39,767 nucleotides of DNA from a phage. The notes beneath the pieces are model-generated. The model was not told where the DNA came from. It saw only the letters and a program-made list of their open reading frames with translations, and did no database searches. Shown here in pieces: positions 576 through 39,767 of the stretch. The position numbers and the translations under genes were made by a program. The DNA lies in sequence record PV935351.1. One strand, written 5' to 3'. Each line of letters starts with the position of its first letter. The first letter of the stretch is position 1.

Positions 576-605
576 TTGACAAGATGTAACGATAAGATGT
601 AAGAT
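576..605 (+). promoter_or_regulatory. candidate host sigma70 early promoter (T7 A3-like)
   Basis: TTGACA (576-581), 18-nt spacer, TAAGAT (600-605); the same -35/-10 hexamers as recalled for T7 A3. Confidence 0.5.
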
Positions 606-728
606 GTACCACATCGAAACAACGGTGATGACCAACACTGAAATGGTCTACCTGAAGTCCTCTGACTGAAGGGAATGCTCTTTAACAATCTGGATAAACT
701 CTTAATGTGCGCCGATAGCGACTAACTA

Positions 729-760
729 CAGGGCCTTTGAGTCTACATCTGAAGGCCCTG
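729..760 (+). other. stem-loop in gene 0.3 leader (possible RNase III site)
   Basis: CAGGGCCTT (729-737) and AAGGCCCTG (752-760) form a perfect 9-bp inverted repeat with a 14-nt loop, about 35 nt upstream of the gene 0.3 start. Confidence 0.5.
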
Positions 761-794
761 ACTGATAGTCACTAACAACTGAGAGGATATAACT

Positions 795-1304
795 ATGGAA
801 CGTAACGCTAACGCATACTATGAGCTGCTGGCTGCAACCGTTGAGCTGTTCAATGAGCGTATTCAGTGCGACGAAATAGCTGAAGGCGATGACTACAGCG
901 ATGCGCTACATGAGGTCGTAGACGGTAATGTTCCGCACTATTACCACGAGATTTTCACGGTGATGGCTGCTGATGGTATTGACCATGAGTTCGAAGACTC
1001 TGGGCTGATGCCTGAGACCAAGGACGTAACGCGTATACTACAAGCTCGCATCTATGAGGCACTGTATAACGATGTGTCTAATAGCTCTGACGTGGTCTGG
1101 TTTGAGGCTGAAGAGGAGGACGAAAAGGCTGAATATTGGGTAGTTGACACTAGAACAGGCGAGATAATTGATACAGCTGTATCAATTTACGAGGCTATTG
1201 CATGTGCAAAAGAACTATATGAGGAAGGTTTTCACATGCAGGTCGAAGACATCAACGATAACGTAGTGTTCGATCCTGAGGCTGCTGAGGAGGACTGCGA
1301 GTGA
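795..1304 (+). CDS. 0.3: Ocr-like DNA-mimic anti-restriction protein with C-terminal extension
   Basis: 169 aa; core [43 protein letters not shown] closely matches recalled T7 Ocr; about 55 extra acidic residues at the C-terminus; GAGG RBS. Confidence 0.85.
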
Positions 1305-1465
1305 TGGTAACTTATGGTCTCTGCCAGCACCACGTCTCCATCGCCAGGCTTATGGTCTTGACCGGGCGATTAACCCACGAGGAGTCTATGCGTCTCCTGA
1401 AGGTGCTCTATGAGCGCCGCAAACGTATGCACGATAGTCTACACGCTGAGGATAAACCACAATGA
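1304..1465 (+). CDS. small early protein, gp0.4-like
   Basis: 53 aa, ATG overlaps the gene 0.3 stop (TGATGG); GAGGAGG RBS; YGL...LLKVLYE pattern resembles recalled T7 gp0.4. Shorter than 60 aa, so absent from the ORF track. Confidence 0.5.
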   Translation: MVTYGLCQHHVSIARLMVLTGRLTHEESMRLLKVLYERRKRMHDSLHAEDKPQ

Positions 1466-2602: not shown

Positions 2603-5284
2603 ATGAGCGTCATCTCTATTGATAAACACGACTTCTCTGATGTGTCGAACGCCATTGAGCCGTTTAACCTGCTGGCAGACCACTACGGGCAAGACCTTGC
2701 AGTCAAACAGCTTCAGCTTGAGCATGAGGCATACACAGAAGGCGAGCGACGTTTCATCAAAAACCTTGAGCGACAGACTGAGCGCGGGGAACTGGCAGAC
2801 AATCAGGTCGCCAAGCCTTTGATGCAGACTCTGGTGCCTAAGATTGCGCAAGCAGTCAAGGAGTGGCACGAAGGCCAAGACGGGAAGCTGTCAACCTCTC
2901 GTCCTAGCGTAGCGTTCACCATGTTAAGCACCGAAGAGAAGGCCGTCAAGGACCGCTCTCTGCGTATCTCTTGCGAGTCTGCTGCGGTCATCATACTGAA
3001 GGTCATACTCTCCAAGCTGGTAAAGCCTGAAGGGATACCGATTACACCGATGGCCTCAGCGTTAGGTCGCACACTTGAGGACGAAATCCGCTTCGGTCGC
3101 ATCCGTGACAAGGAGAAGGAGCACTTCAAGAAGGCGATAGCTGAGAACCTGAACAAGCGAGCTGGGGCATCCTACAAGAAAGCCTACATGCAAGCGGTAG
3201 AGGCATCCATGCTGGAGCAAGGCCAACTGGAAGATGCGTGGGGGACTTGGAGTCCGACCGAAGCGGTACACGTTGGCATCAAGATGCTAGAGATTGTCAT
3301 CCAGTCCACACAACTGGTCGAGCTTAAGCGTTATGGTGCTGGCAATGCGGCGGCTGACGTTGAGATGGTCCACCTGTCAGACTTCTGGGTCAAGAAGATG
3401 GCACAACGAGGATTCAGCCTTGCGGGTATAGCTCCAGTCTACCAGCCTTGCGTCGTTCCACCTAAGCCGTGGACTGGTGTCGTAGGTGGTGGGTACTGGG
3501 CCAAAGGTCGCAGACCGCTACCCCTGATTCGCTTAGGGTCTAAATCAGCGGTGGCACGTTATGAAGACGTATACATGCCTGAAGTCTATGACGCTGTGAA
3601 TATCATCCAGAATACACCTTGGAAAGTGAACAAGAAGGTACTGGACGTGGTGAACATGGTCGAGAAGTTGAACAACACGCCTATTGATGACATCCCTCAG
3701 ATGGAGCCACTGAAGCCTGAAGACTATGCGGGTGAGACTGAGGAGGAACTCAAGGCATGGAAGAAGGCTGCTGCTGGTATCTATCGCCGCGAGAAGGCCC
3801 GACAGTCACGCAGATTATCACTGAGCTTTATCGTTAACCAAGCAAACAAGTTCTCTCAGTTCAAGGCCATCTGGTTCCCGTACAACATGGATTGGCGAGG
3901 TCGTGTCTACGCTGTCCCGATGTTCAACCCTCAGGGTAACGACATGCAGAAGGGTCTACTGACTCTGGCAGTCGGCAAGCCTATTGGTGCTGACGGTTTC
4001 AAATGGCTGAAGGTCCACGGTGCGAACTGTGCGGGTGTCGATAAAGTCACCTTCGAGGAGCGCATCAAGTGGGTGGAAGACAACCACGAAAACATCATTG
4101 CTGCTGCTAAGGCACCGATGGATAGTATTGAGTGGTGGGGCAAGTTAGACTCTCCGTTCTGTTTCCTCGCGTTCTGCTTCGAGTATGCTGGCGTAATGCA
4201 CCACGGCCTGTCTTACTCCTGCTCGCTGCCGATAGCGTTCGATGGGTCCTGCTCTGGTATTCAGCACTTCAGTGCGATGCTTCGTGACCACATCGGTGGA
4301 CATGCAGTAAACCTGACGCCATCCGGTAAGGTACAAGACATCTACCGCATTGTGTCTGACCGCATTGAGGAGGAGCTTAAAGTCCTGCTGATTACAGGTA
4401 CTGACAACGAGATGGACACTCACGAGGACAAGAAAACTGGTGAGAGTACCGAACGTATCAAGCTGGGGACACGAGAGCTGGCCCGTCAGTGGCTGACATA
4501 CGGTATGTCACGCAAGGTCACTAAGCGTTCAGTCATGACTCTGGCCTATGGGTCGAAAGAGTACGGCTTCGCAGACCAAGTTTATGAGGACATCGTGATG
4601 CCAGCGATTGACTCAGGGTCTGGCGCTATGTTCACCGAGCCTAGCCAAGCGTCTCGCTTCATGGCTAAGATGATTTGGGAAGCTGTGAGTGTGACCGTAG
4701 TTGCTGCGGTTGACGCGATGAAGTGGCTTCAAGGTGCTGCCAAGCTGCTGGCTGCTGAGGTGAAGGACAAGAAGACTGGAGAAATCCTGAAGCCTTGCCT
4801 TCCGGTACACTGGGTAACACCTGATGGTTTCCCGGTCTGGCAGGAATACCGCAAGAAGGATACCACTCGTCTGAACCTGATGTTCTTAGGGTCATTCAAC
4901 CTTCAACCTACGGTCAACAAAGGTATGAAGAAGGAGTTGGATAAGCACAAGCAGGAGTCAGGAATTAGCCCGAACTTCGTCCACTCACAAGATGGTAGCC
5001 ATCTCCGCAAGACTGTAGTCCACACTCACCGCAAGTATGGCGTGATGTCATTCGCAGTGATTCACGATAGCTTCGGGACCATCCCGGCTGACGCTGAGTA
5101 TCTGTTCCGTGGCGTCCGTGAGACAATGGTCGAGACCTACCGCGACAACGATGTGCTGCTTGACTTCTACGAGCAGTTTGAATACCAGCTTCACGAGAGC
5201 CAGCGCGACAAGTTGCCTGAGCTTCCGAAGAAAGGTAAACTAAATATCGAGGACATCTTGTCTTCAGACTTTGCATTCGCTTAA
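2603..5284 (+). CDS. 1: T7-type single-subunit DNA-directed RNA polymerase
   Basis: 893 aa; collinear with recalled T7 RNAP, ending in the shared FAFA terminus and including WFPYNMDWRGRVYA, LPIAFDGSCSGIQHFSAMLRD and HDSFGT. Confidence 0.98.
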   Translation: MSVISIDKHDFSDVSNAIEPFNLLADHYGQDLAVKQLQLEHEAYTEGERRFIKNLERQTERGELADNQVAKPLMQTLVPKIAQAVKEWHEGQDGKLSTSRPSVAFTMLSTEEKAVKDRSLRISCESAAVIILKVILSKLVKPEGIPITPMASALGRTLEDEIRFGRIRDKEKEHFKKAIAENLNKRAGASYKKAYMQAVEASMLEQGQLEDAWGTWSPTEAVHVGIKMLEIVIQSTQLVELKRYGAGNAAADVEMVHLSDFWVKKMAQRGFSLAGIAPVYQPCVVPPKPWTGVVGGGYWAKGRRPLPLIRLGSKSAVARYEDVYMPEVYDAVNIIQNTPWKVNKKVLDVVNMVEKLNNTPIDDIPQMEPLKPEDYAGETEEELKAWKKAAAGIYRREKARQSRRLSLSFIVNQANKFSQFKAIWFPYNMDWRGRVYAVPMFNPQGNDMQKGLLTLAVGKPIGADGFKWLKVHGANCAGVDKVTFEERIKWVEDNHENIIAAAKAPMDSIEWWGKLDSPFCFLAFCFEYAGVMHHGLSYSCSLPIAFDGSCSGIQHFSAMLRDHIGGHAVNLTPSGKVQDIYRIVSDRIEEELKVLLITGTDNEMDTHEDKKTGESTERIKLGTRELARQWLTYGMSRKVTKRSVMTLAYGSKEYGFADQVYEDIVMPAIDSGSGAMFTEPSQASRFMAKMIWEAVSVTVVAAVDAMKWLQGAAKLLAAEVKDKKTGEILKPCLPVHWVTPDGFPVWQEYRKKDTTRLNLMFLGSFNLQPTVNKGMKKELDKHKQESGISPNFVHSQDGSHLRKTVVHTHRKYGVMSFAVIHDSFGTIPADAEYLFRGVRETMVETYRDNDVLLDFYEQFEYQLHESQRDKLPELPKKGKLNIEDILSSDFAFA

Positions 5285-32771: not shown

Positions 32772-35700
32772 ATGTCCACGATTACACAATTCCCTTCAGG
32801 AAACACTCAGTACAGGATTGAGTTCGACTACCTAGCCAGAACGTTTGTGGTTGTTACGCTGGTGAATAGCTCTAACCCTACCATGAACCGTGTACTGGAA
32901 GTTGGTCGAGATTACCGATTCCTTAATCCAACGATGATTGAGATGTTGGTTGACCAATCAGGTTTCGACATCGTTCGTATTCACCGTCAGACTGGAACTG
33001 ACTTAGTGGTAGACTTCAGGAATGGCTCAGTGTTGACAGCTAGTGACCTGACCAATTCAGAGCTTCAGGCTATCCATATTGCAGAAGAAGGTCGAGACCA
33101 AACGGTTGACTTAGCGAAGGAATATGCCGATGCTGCTAGTAGCTCTGCTGGCAACGCTAAGGATAGCGAGGACGAAGCACGACGAATCGCTGAGAGTATC
33201 AGGGAAGCTGGTCTAATTGGCTATATTACCCGTCGCTCCTTCGAGAAAGGCTACAACGTTACAACATGGAGCGAGGTCCTGCTATGGGAAGAGGATGGTG
33301 ATTATTACCGCTGGGATGGTACGCTTCCAAAGAACGTTCCTGCTGGTTCAACTCCTGAAACTTCCGGTGGGATTGGATTAGGTGCGTGGGTTAGTGTTGG
33401 TGATGCTGCTTTAAGAAGTCAGATTTCAAACCCGGAGGGGGCAATACTCTACCCTGAATTACATAGAGCACGCTGGCTTGATGAAAAAGATGTGCGTGGT
33501 TGGGGTGCTAAAGGGGATGGTGTCACTGATGATACAGCAGCGTTAACGAGCGCATTAAGCGCCACACCTGTTGGACAAAAGGTTAATGGCAATGGGAAGA
33601 CATATAAGGTCACATCACTTCCTGACATTAGTCGCTTCATCAACACTCGTTTCGTTTATGAGCGCATTCCCGGACAACCTCTTTATTATGCCTCTGAAGA
33701 ATTTGTTCAGGGTGAGCTATTCAAAATAACTGACACCCCTTATTACAATGCGTGGCCTCAGGATAAAGCGTTCGTATATGAGAATGTGATATATGCACCT
33801 TACATGGGTAGCGATCGTCATGGTGTTAGTCGTCTGCATGTATCATGGGTTAAGTCTGGTGATGACGGTCAAACATGGTCTACTCCAGAGTGGTTAACTG
33901 ATCTGCATCCAGATTACCCTACAGTGAACTATCATTGTATGAGTATGGGTGTATGTCGCAACCGTCTGTTTGCCATGATTGAAACACGTACTTTAGCCAA
34001 GAACGCATTAACCAATTGTGCATTGTGGGATCGCCCCATGTCTCGTAGCCTGCATCTTACTGGTGGTATCACTAAAGCTGCAAATCAGCAATATGCAACA
34101 ATACATGTACCAGACCACGGACTATTCGTTGGTGATTTTGTTAACTTCTCTAATTCTGCGGTAACAGGTGTCTCCGGTGACATGACTGTTGCAACCGTAA
34201 TAGATAAGGACAACTTCACGGTTCTTACACCCAACCAGCAGACTTCAGATTTGAATAACGCTGGAAAGAATTGGCACATGGGTACTTCTTTCCATAAGTC
34301 GCCATGGCGTAAGACAGACCTTGGTCTAATCCCTCGTGTCACAGAGGTGCATAGCTTTGCTACTATTGATAACAATGGCTTTGTTATGGGTTATCATCAA
34401 GGCGATGTAGCTCCATGCGAAGTTGGACTTTTCTATTTCCCTGACGCTTTCAATAGCCCATCTAGTTATGTTCGTCGTCAGATACCATCTGAGTATGAAC
34501 CAGATGCGTCAGAGCCGTGCATCAAGTACTATGACGGTGTATTATACCTTATCACTCGTGGCACTCGTGGGGATAGACTGGGTAGCTCTTTGCATCGTAG
34601 TAGAGACATAGGTCAGACTTGGGAGTCGCTGAGATTTCCACATAATGTTCATCATACTACATTACCTTTTGCTAAAGTAGGGGATGACCTTATTATGTTT
34701 GGTTCAGAACGTGCAGAAAATGAATGGGAAGAAGGTGCGCAAGATGATCGTTACAAGGCATCTTATCCTCGCACCTTCTATGCACGCTTGAATGTAAACA
34801 ATTGGAATGCAGACGATATTGAATGGGTTAACATCACTGACCAGATTTATCAGGGCGGAATAGTTAACTCAGGTGTAGGCGTTGGTTCGGTAGTTGTGAA
34901 GGATAGTTACATCTACTACATGTTTGGTGGAGAGGACCATTTTAACCCATGGTCATATGGAGATAACTCAGCGAAGGATCCATTCAAAGCAGATGGTCAT
35001 CCCTCAGATTTGTATTGCTACAAAATGAAGATTGGCCCAGACAATCGTGTTTCAAGGGATTTCAGGTATGGTGCTGTACCTAACAGAGCTGTTCCCGTGT
35101 TTTTTGATACGAATGGGATTCGCACTGTTCCTGCGCCAATTGAATTTACAGGGGATTTAGGTTTAGGTCATGTGACCATTAGAGCCAGCACCAGTAGTAA
35201 CATTCGCTCTGAAGTTTTAATGGAAGGTGAATATGGGTTTATCGGAAAATCTATACCGACTGATAACCCGGCAGGGCAGCGCACTATATTTTGCGGAGGC
35301 GACAGTACCAGTTCTTCTTCTGGTGCACAGATTACGCTTTATGGTGCAAATAACACCGACTCAAAGCGAATAGTTTACAATGGTGCTGAGCATCTGTTCC
35401 AGACTGCTGACGTTAAGCCTTATAACGATAACGTCACTGCGCTTGGTGGGCCTAGCAACCGTTTCACCACTGCATACCTCGGAAGCAACCCTATTGTTAC
35501 TTCTAACGGGGAGAGGAAAACAGAGCCGGTAGTTTTTGATGATGCTTTCCTTGATGCCTGGGGTGATGTTCACTACATCATGTACCAGTGGTTGGATGCT
35601 GTTCAACTGAAAGGCAATGATGCTCGTATTCACTTCGGTGTTATTGCTCAGCAAATTCGTGATGTATTCATTGCGCATGGTCTGATGGACGAAAACAGTA

Positions 35701-35966
35701 CGAATTGTCGTTATGCTGTTCTGTGCTATGACAAGTATCCACGGATGACCGATACGGTATTTTCGCACAATGAAATCATTGAACACACTGACGAGGAGGG
35801 TAATGTCACTACTACGGAAGAACCTGTATACACCGAGGTGGTTATTCACGAAGAGGGTGAGGAGTGGGGTGTTCGGCCTGACGGAATTTTCTTTGCTGAA
35901 GCCGCTTATCAGAGAAGAAAACTGGAAAGAATCGAAGCCAGACTTTCTGCTCTTGAACAGAAGTAA
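32772..35966 (+). CDS. 17: tailspike endosialidase (endo-N-acetylneuraminidase) with gp17-like N-terminal adaptor and C-terminal chaperone domain
   Basis: 1064 aa; N-terminus MSTITQFPSGNTQYRIEFDYLARTF... is gp17-like; two Asp-boxes SGDDGQTW and SRDIGQTW; matches the endoNF precursor of phage K1F as I recall it; AT-richer from about 33420. Confidence 0.92.
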   Translation: MSTITQFPSGNTQYRIEFDYLARTFVVVTLVNSSNPTMNRVLEVGRDYRFLNPTMIEMLVDQSGFDIVRIHRQTGTDLVVDFRNGSVLTASDLTNSELQAIHIAEEGRDQTVDLAKEYADAASSSAGNAKDSEDEARRIAESIREAGLIGYITRRSFEKGYNVTTWSEVLLWEEDGDYYRWDGTLPKNVPAGSTPETSGGIGLGAWVSVGDAALRSQISNPEGAILYPELHRARWLDEKDVRGWGAKGDGVTDDTAALTSALSATPVGQKVNGNGKTYKVTSLPDISRFINTRFVYERIPGQPLYYASEEFVQGELFKITDTPYYNAWPQDKAFVYENVIYAPYMGSDRHGVSRLHVSWVKSGDDGQTWSTPEWLTDLHPDYPTVNYHCMSMGVCRNRLFAMIETRTLAKNALTNCALWDRPMSRSLHLTGGITKAANQQYATIHVPDHGLFVGDFVNFSNSAVTGVSGDMTVATVIDKDNFTVLTPNQQTSDLNNAGKNWHMGTSFHKSPWRKTDLGLIPRVTEVHSFATIDNNGFVMGYHQGDVAPCEVGLFYFPDAFNSPSSYVRRQIPSEYEPDASEPCIKYYDGVLYLITRGTRGDRLGSSLHRSRDIGQTWESLRFPHNVHHTTLPFAKVGDDLIMFGSERAENEWEEGAQDDRYKASYPRTFYARLNVNNWNADDIEWVNITDQIYQGGIVNSGVGVGSVVVKDSYIYYMFGGEDHFNPWSYGDNSAKDPFKADGHPSDLYCYKMKIGPDNRVSRDFRYGAVPNRAVPVFFDTNGIRTVPAPIEFTGDLGLGHVTIRASTSSNIRSEVLMEGEYGFIGKSIPTDNPAGQRTIFCGGDSTSSSSGAQITLYGANNTDSKRIVYNGAEHLFQTADVKPYNDNVTALGGPSNRFTTAYLGSNPIVTSNGERKTEPVVFDDAFLDAWGDVHYIMYQWLDAVQLKGNDARIHFGVIAQQIRDVFIAHGLMDENSTNCRYAVLCYDKYPRMTDTVFSHNEIIEHTDEEGNVTTTEEPVYTEVVIHEEGEEWGVRPDGIFFAEAAYQRRKLERIEARLSALEQK

Positions 35967-39563: not shown

Positions 39564-39767
39564 TCTCACAGTTCAAGAACCTCAAGTCTCCCCCCCTAGG
39601 CCCTCTTTCAGTCCAGACCAAAGGCCCTACCCATTACTGCTCCTTGCAGTCACAGCCAGTCTATCATAAGGTTGGACCGATGGTCAAGACGTTAGGTCGA
39701 CGATAGGTCTAGGCTATGGCTTAGGGAAGGACGATAGGTAGAGGCTATAGGTCTTCTTTGAGTCTCT
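39564..39767. repeat. right direct terminal repeat (DTR)
   Basis: Identical to bases 1-204. Confidence 0.95.

Follow-up and report, generated by a model that had tools for sequence, protein, structure and literature searches.

A predicted C-terminal mini-domain in the long-form Ocr protein of a K1F-like phage

Ocr is the archetypal DNA mimic; its homodimer resembles a bent 24-bp stretch of B-DNA, inhibits type I restriction-modification (R-M) and BREX systems, and is sensed by PARIS. It is also a reference trigger or target in studies of BREX, PARIS, Ronin, and type III R-M, nearly all of which concern the 117-amino-acid (aa) protein of T7 (gp0.3; structure 1S7Z). As far as the literature found goes, functional work on Ocr has been carried out on T7 Ocr and SP6 gp5 only. 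The activity of T7 Ocr requires E59, D62, E64, E66, D67, and D73 (mature numbering; the Mut3/Mut12 positions), and neutralizing these residues abolishes it (PMC3439906). Replacement of F54 with Val leads to escape from sensing by PARIS and EcoR22I (PMC12707154; bioRxiv 2023.04.06.535777). Truncation of T7 Ocr at residue 99 leaves it fully active against EcoKI, both in the cell and in vitro (PMC3439906), and a C-terminal tag on Ocr is tolerated in pull-down assays (PMC11464382).

The window, which is the whole stretch of DNA that was analysed (39,767 nt), is the complete linear T7-type genome PV935351.1 of a K1F-like, T7-family phage. Its nucleotide identity to Kayfunavirus phages is ~90-92% across the first 8 kb. 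The tailspike combines its endosialidase domains with the T7 tail-fibre N-terminal adaptor and a C-terminal chaperone domain; like K1F, this is a K1-capsule-specific phage. The features of the genome ends, the early region, and the tailspike are as follows:

1-204 and 39564-39767: exact direct terminal repeat of 204 bp, beginning TCTCACAG
576..605, plus strand: site resembling a sigma-70-type early promoter (TTGACA, 18-nt spacer, TAAGAT), 5' of the ocr gene
716..775, plus strand: stable RNA stem-loop just 5' of the ribosome-binding site
781..787, plus strand: Shine-Dalgarno-like GAGAGGA read from the sequence, with the ATG 7 nt further on
795..1304, plus strand: coding sequence of the gene 0.3 homologue (long-form Ocr), 169 aa, ATG start, TGA stop at 1302-1304
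1304..1465, plus strand: next early gene, K1F gp0.35 homologue, 53 aa, ATG at 1304
32772-35966, plus strand: tailspike, 1064 aa, with the full endosialidase domain set

Close to the left terminal repeat, on its inner side, there are three 16-nt units in tandem (CCTACAGTCTCACTAA-like) that start at positions 242, 258, and 274, and a fourth unit, CCTACAGTC, lies at 303, so that the tandem-unit region spans 242-311.

The 169-aa gene is the first substantial open reading frame (ORF) from the left end of the genome and is syntenic with K1F 0.3. The ORF, its stop codon, and the peptide strings quoted in an earlier note, made from the letters of this DNA, were all found to be exact. K1F gp0.3 (CAJ29342.1, deposited as 'putative ocr protein') is 95.3% identical over the full length; it is the same gene, with essentially no difference. 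The upstream promoter-like site agrees with 10 of 12 consensus positions in a consensus scan, which is a match to consensus only. By analogy with T7 class I transcription, this site would be an early promoter for the host RNA polymerase, and the ORF would be transcribed early by that polymerase on entry. The RNA fold of positions 700-800 has an energy of -27.4 kcal/mol (z = -2.9 against shuffles). Its stem-loop occupies the position of the R0.3 RNase III site of T7 and is presumably processed by RNase III. At the other end of the gene, the Ocr stop and the next ATG overlap as TGATG (1302-1306). This overlap and the ...EEDCE C-terminus before the stop recur in K1F and in 77 long-form phage records. 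Relatives of the 53-aa downstream product have a precomputed match to PF26807 (Phage_T7_GP04), and a Pfam search with the PV935351.1 copy returned no match.

Within the long-form protein, the following parts are distinguished:

795..1082, plus strand: Ocr DNA-mimic domain, residues 1-96, assigned from Pfam, PDB, and Foldseek matches and conserved acidic residues
1083..1130, plus strand: linker, residues 97-112, with a conserved VVWFE motif and, after it, an acidic, indel-rich spacer
1131..1277, plus strand: C-terminal mini-domain, residues 113-161 (EYWVVD...VVFDP), ~49 aa, predicted beta-beta-alpha-beta-beta
1138-1140, plus strand: GGG run, the site of a +1 G insertion in a relative
1278..1304, plus strand: acidic tail, residues 162-169 (EAAEEDCE), and stop; the ...EEDCE ending is common to short-form relatives

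The product had been described in the earlier note as an Ocr-like DNA mimic, and this description holds for residues 1-96. Pfam ocr (PF08684) matches residues 7-96 with an E-value of 8e-31 and a score of 106.9 bits (cut-off 25), covering profile positions 5-94 of 101, and PHROG 2568 ('ocr-like anti-restriction') matches with an E-value of 6e-56. A phmmer search of the PDB returned T7 Ocr (1s7z/2y7c), with E-values of 4e-26 to 5e-26 across residues 8-111. Foldseek with the full-length model placed 1s7z first (E 5e-4, probability 1.0, 53% identity) and 8zek_B, a chain of the BrxX-Ocr complex, second, with no further probable matches; the N-terminal domain of this model is of moderate quality (pLDDT 49-85). 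Compared with T7 Ocr, 49/87 positions (56%) are identical at residues 8-94, and 41/59 (69%) at residues 36-94. Identity drops to 4/17 at residues 95-111, where acidity is the only shared trait. The close alignment previously claimed for the first 110 aa therefore reaches slightly too far, since it ends at residues ~94-96. All six positions of the T7 Mut3/Mut12 patch are acidic (D60, D63, E65, E67, D68, and E74), and F54 is retained. The net charge of residues 1-99 is -18, compared with -17 in T7, and the whole 169-aa protein has a net charge of -38 and a pI of ~4.05. The dN/dS of the Ocr domain is 0.18 (Nei-Gojobori, 12 genes). The likeness to T7 Ocr hence covers the Pfam family, the acidic patch, F54, the position as first early gene, and a pI of ~4. 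Every sequence-level mark of family membership was found, and at that level residues 1-96 are a true Ocr domain.

The two proteins differ beyond this domain. The 117 aa of T7 Ocr end in a helical extension and a disordered acidic tail, whereas in PV935351.1 the residues corresponding to ~97-117 of T7 are replaced by the linker, the 49-aa domain, and the 8-aa tail. The report of a C-terminal extension that T7 Ocr lacks is thus borne out, with a net extra length of 52 aa. In the linker, W102 of the VVWFE motif is invariant in the long-form alignment. The spacer that follows has nine residues in most long forms and 9-10 in 103 of 116 clusters, with a range of 2-20; in the cultured phage CLB_P1 it has two.

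The mini-domain alone was modelled by AlphaFold with a pLDDT of 88.5 and a pTM of 0.72 (five models, 86-88.5). In the full-length monomer, it was modelled as beta(114-118)-beta(124-128)-alpha(131-143)-beta(148-151)-beta(157-159) with a pLDDT of 79-84, and the secondary structure agrees between the two predictions. The full-length model has a pTM of 0.47, and its pLDDT falls below 50 at linker residues 107-110. The structure prediction proposed in the earlier note, for the full protein and for the extension, thus gives a compact mini-domain in both cases, and the models rule out the disordered extension that the note had named as a possible refutation. The alignment block of the mini-domain opens with EYWVVDxxTGxII..A..L..A...A..., and W115, A134, G145, H147, and V150-P161 are invariant or nearly so. 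The beta3-turn-beta4 hairpin of 13 residues is identical in 65 of the 116 cluster representatives and near-identical in the remainder, and the adjoining helix sorts into distinct alleles. The dN/dS is 0.37 for the mini-domain and 0.20 for the linker and tail (Nei-Gojobori, 12 genes). The former value indicates that the mini-domain is translated and under purifying selection, evolving about twice as fast as Ocr. The tail usually reads AAEEDCE among long forms. Two cysteines were also observed in this part of the protein: Cys137 (1203-1205) in the mini-domain helix is more than 90% conserved in the K1F-type, and Cys168 (1296-1298) in the terminal ...EEDCE is kept in most long forms and also in short forms.

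The extension had been called acidic, which is correct for the K1F-type allele and does not extend to the family. In PV935351.1, the net charge is -5 in the linker, -10 over the 49 aa of the mini-domain, and -5 in the tail, and the acidity of this mini-domain per residue equals that of Ocr. Among the 116 representatives, the charge of the mini-domain core ranges from 0 to -9 with a median of -4, compared with -12 to -21 for the Ocr domain. The K1F-type allele, as found in PV935351.1, is the most acidic.

Long-form Ocr is widespread. Of 573 Ocr-containing phage records, 77 cover at least 80% of the 169-aa query. When the last 70 residues were used as the query, 72 phage records were recovered, and every match lay within an Ocr gene. 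The long-form architecture was also found in more than 100 metagenomic clusters at 90% identity. Kayfunavirus long forms (K1F, CLB_P1, LM33_P1, SH3, Hafnia yong1, and Providencia EPr2) are two-module proteins of 162-173 aa at the same position with 76-95% identity. Their records are labelled Ocr, anti-restriction protein, 'hypothetical protein', or, wrongly, 'protein kinase'. Several Ocr records are mislabelled 'protein kinase' or 'N4-like RNA polymerase', and these labels are evident annotation errors propagating among Kayfunavirus genomes. More diverged long forms occur in Ebrios, Stenotrophomonas IME15, and Aeromonas T7-like phages (nine records) and in Kosakonia phage Kc166A (183 aa). Their C-domains are 27-34% identical to that of PV935351.1 and their Ocr domains 57-73%. 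These types share the pattern W-x-V ... G ... A ... G-x4-VED ... P followed by an acidic tail, and they lack the DxNDN turn and the EEDCE tail. The comparison of these sequences indicates that the fusion of Ocr with the mini-domain is old and that the C-domain diverges faster. In Aeromonas phage KFSA9 and Escherichia phage Ebrios, the early region encodes long-form Ocr together with a SAM-degrading enzyme or methyltransferase, which places two anti-restriction strategies side by side.

Short forms among the relatives are 108-117 aa long. Those of phiYIO1-1, PE3-1, K1E (gp3), SP6 (gp5), and Klebsiella Przondovirus have an Ocr domain that is 80-96% identical, including VVW[FYW]E. Some share the ...EEDC(E/DD) ending, and all are without the 49-aa domain. 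SP6 gp5 inhibits BREX without such a domain (PMC11341690). The phiYIO1-1 form is 96% identical at residues 1-103 and ends in ...EAEESDEEDCE; it equals the long form minus EYW...DPAAAEE exactly, with the gap lying between two acidic repeats, and from its sequence looks like a precise excision of the mini-domain. PE3-1 and K1E gp3 end just past the VVW[FY]E acidic stretch, and the Klebsiella Przondovirus Ocr (e.g., PCCM_1119) ends in ...EEDCDD.

The mini-domain can also be uncoupled from Ocr or fused further. One additional G at the GGG run splits the gene into a 117-aa Ocr, equal in length to T7 Ocr, and an overlapping 59-aa C-domain ORF, which starts at an ATG lying outside the reading frame of the long form. 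This split allele comes from three Logan metagenome runs of one project (SRR33193082-84; positions 4001-4020 of locus L001) and could be a real 'gene fission' or a shared error. One relative (P0120) is truncated at residue 122. In a 167-aa metagenomic form (P0111), an in-frame deletion joins the C-domain (to ...GRHLK) with the C-terminal half of the product of the next gene (AVYEGHKRIHDSLHAEDK). This deletion form, present on seven contigs of up to 38.9 kb, is a further sign of a deletion hotspot at the junction. As judged from these alleles, the mini-domain is discrete, old, repeatedly lost or uncoupled, and conditionally dispensable.

Searches for relatives of the mini-domain gave no family in Pfam, PHROG, NCBIfam, or the PDB, where hits to a single sequence and, for the PDB, to two profiles were noise only. 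An exhaustive HMMER search with the 60-aa C-terminal segment against 1.84 billion representative proteins returned a single match, a 3046-aa eukaryote-type cadherin-repeat protein, 14 times via its DxNDN-containing segment. Long-form Ocr itself did not appear in these results, presumably because short-form cluster heads represent it. The beta3-beta4 turn (1248-1277) carries DxNDN, the same string as the cadherin inter-repeat Ca2+-binding motif. A cadherin relation was rejected as a probable chance match, as DxNDN is missing in the Ebrios-type and Kc166A-type domains. An EF-hand or cadherin-like metal site at the DINDN turn was likewise rejected, because the subtypes do not share the turn and because it has neither the Gly nor the Glu expected of an EF-hand. 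Word-indexed searches with the mini-domain and its alignment found no independent family and returned only two ORF fragments, both belonging to frameshifted or truncated relatives. Foldseek of the mini-domain on BFVD gave nothing at E <= 1e-3, and many small uncharacterised phage proteins (45-95 aa) had TM-scores of 0.6-0.79. The ClpS adaptor, the T4 Dmd antitoxin, and the anti-CRISPR AcrIF9 are small alpha/beta proteins of similar fold. Identity as a ClpS-like adaptor was rejected, since neither sequence membership nor the N-degron binding pocket was found, and identity as a Dmd antitoxin or AcrIF9-type inhibitor was rejected for lack of detectable homology. The fold of the mini-domain is a common small alpha/beta topology and assigns no function. 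No stand-alone or non-Ocr-fused mini-domain was found in 50,697 phage records, in IMG/VR (three loci, all Ocr fusions), or in 185,579 species genomes, and there is no paralogue elsewhere within PV935351.1. The literature found by full-text search contained no description of the long-form C-terminal domain. The gene is already in databases, with K1F gp0.3 long deposited and dozens of later genomes following, and the mini-domain is apparently undescribed.

The earlier note had offered two roles for the extension, a longer DNA-mimic surface or a second function. The former is less favoured now, in view of the unconserved charge, the variable linker, and the activity of T7 Ocr ending at residue 99; a putative second function is plausible. 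We prefer to read the protein as Ocr that carries an accessory binding module on a tether, so that each dimer has two modules, with a host factor as their target, and we give this reading an even chance. Residues 1-96 would then form an orthodox Ocr that, by homology, dimerizes into a rigid acidic rod mimicking bent B-DNA. Residues 113-161 would form an autonomous mini-domain set within Ocr's acidic tail, with a flexible acidic linker before it and the ...EEDCE end after it, and each dimer would carry two of them on flexible tethers. The tether looks flexible owing to the low model confidence of the linker and its variation in length from 2 to 20. The mini-domain would most likely act as an accessory protein-binding module through its near-invariant hairpin and faster-evolving helix face; a conserved hairpin beside a helix with distinct alleles is a pattern that suits a protein-recognition surface. 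Candidates for the bound host factor are an Ocr sensor and a second component of defence. Core anti-restriction activity would not need the mini-domain, which would be conditionally dispensable. The unconserved charge and the flexible-looking tether argue that it probably adds no DNA-mimic surface. Against the binding module, a truly independent anti-defence module would be expected alone or otherwise fused more often. Moreover, the acidity of the K1F-type and the 9-10-residue linkers in 103 of 116 clusters may leave a fixed-geometry, charge-based role for this allele.

False read-through, which the earlier note had listed as a possible refutation, would require a mistake in sequencing or assembly where Ocr truly stops, and the existence of relatives with short forms would agree with it. 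It is ruled out by the frame and stop conserved in many independent genomes. K1F, 76 further phage records, and the metagenomic clusters share the architecture, and it is accompanied by purifying selection, a confident fold, and the conserved stop/start overlap with the next gene, so that the probability of an artefact is negligible. Another explanation is an extended DNA mimic. Here, the acidic linker, domain, and tail would lengthen the charged rod at both dimer ends and imitate flanking DNA, which we consider unlikely; the associated proposal of better or broader binding to type I R-M (e.g., the HsdR motor region), to BREX, or to further defences that bind DNA is unlikely to the same degree. 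The entire extension is acidic in PV935351.1, the acidic flanks are conserved, and the linker has 9-10 residues in most clusters, all of which suit this explanation. However, the charge of the core is not conserved across the family, whereas that of the Ocr domain always is strongly negative. The linker is of low confidence, and phages with as few as 2 (CLB_P1) and as many as 20 linker residues are viable. The C-terminal tail of T7 Ocr is dispensable in vitro and in vivo (PMC3439906), and the best-conserved element of the extension is a specific hairpin sequence rather than charge.

Two further explanations leave the DNA-mimic surface aside. The mini-domain could shield Ocr by masking it from, or by blocking, the death-triggering systems that detect it, such as PARIS AriA, Ronin, and type III EcoR22I. 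Several systems are known to sense Ocr (PMC12707154; PMC11464382; bioRxiv 2023.04.06.535777), and F54, the residue through which PARIS and EcoR22I are escaped, is unchanged here, so that another route of evasion would be useful. The mini-domain also changes at twice the rate of Ocr and has been lost repeatedly, as an arms-race module would be expected to do. In contrast, the mini-domain has no similarity to known inhibitors, and PARIS recognises diverse small acidic proteins (PMC11464382), so that added acidic mass might raise detection; shielding is judged quite improbable. A structural accessory without a target of its own, which stabilises, solubilises, or oligomerises Ocr or guards it against proteolysis, would explain why the mini-domain occurs only in fusion with Ocr. 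Its generic fold and the viability of phages without it point the same way. However, the Ocr proteins of T7, SP6, and Klebsiella phages work or persist without a mini-domain, and from a passive stabiliser one would not expect a near-invariant surface hairpin of 13 residues next to a helix face that diversifies into distinct alleles. This explanation is seriously doubtful.

The tethered binding module with a host target is thus retained as the preferred reading. The mini-domain may also be a new self-contained anti-defence module, either an inhibitor or decoy for an Ocr-sensing system (PARIS, Ronin, or a type III EcoR22I-like system) or an inhibitor of another defence; this idea is rather unlikely. 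If it is true, one early protein would disable restriction together with the backup immunity that punishes anti-restriction, and the split allele and repeated losses would stem from hosts where the module brings no benefit or is itself detected.

The therapeutically used coliphage genus Kayfunavirus (K1F, CLB_P1, LM33_P1, and others) carries a longer Ocr with a conserved domain that is predicted to fold. A target of its own would make the mini-domain a new small module of anti-defence, and the protein an example of such functions fused in one early product. If it has no target, the results obtained with T7 Ocr would transfer directly to Kayfunavirus phages. Matched long, short, and split alleles exist naturally; therefore, either answer would be cheap to obtain.
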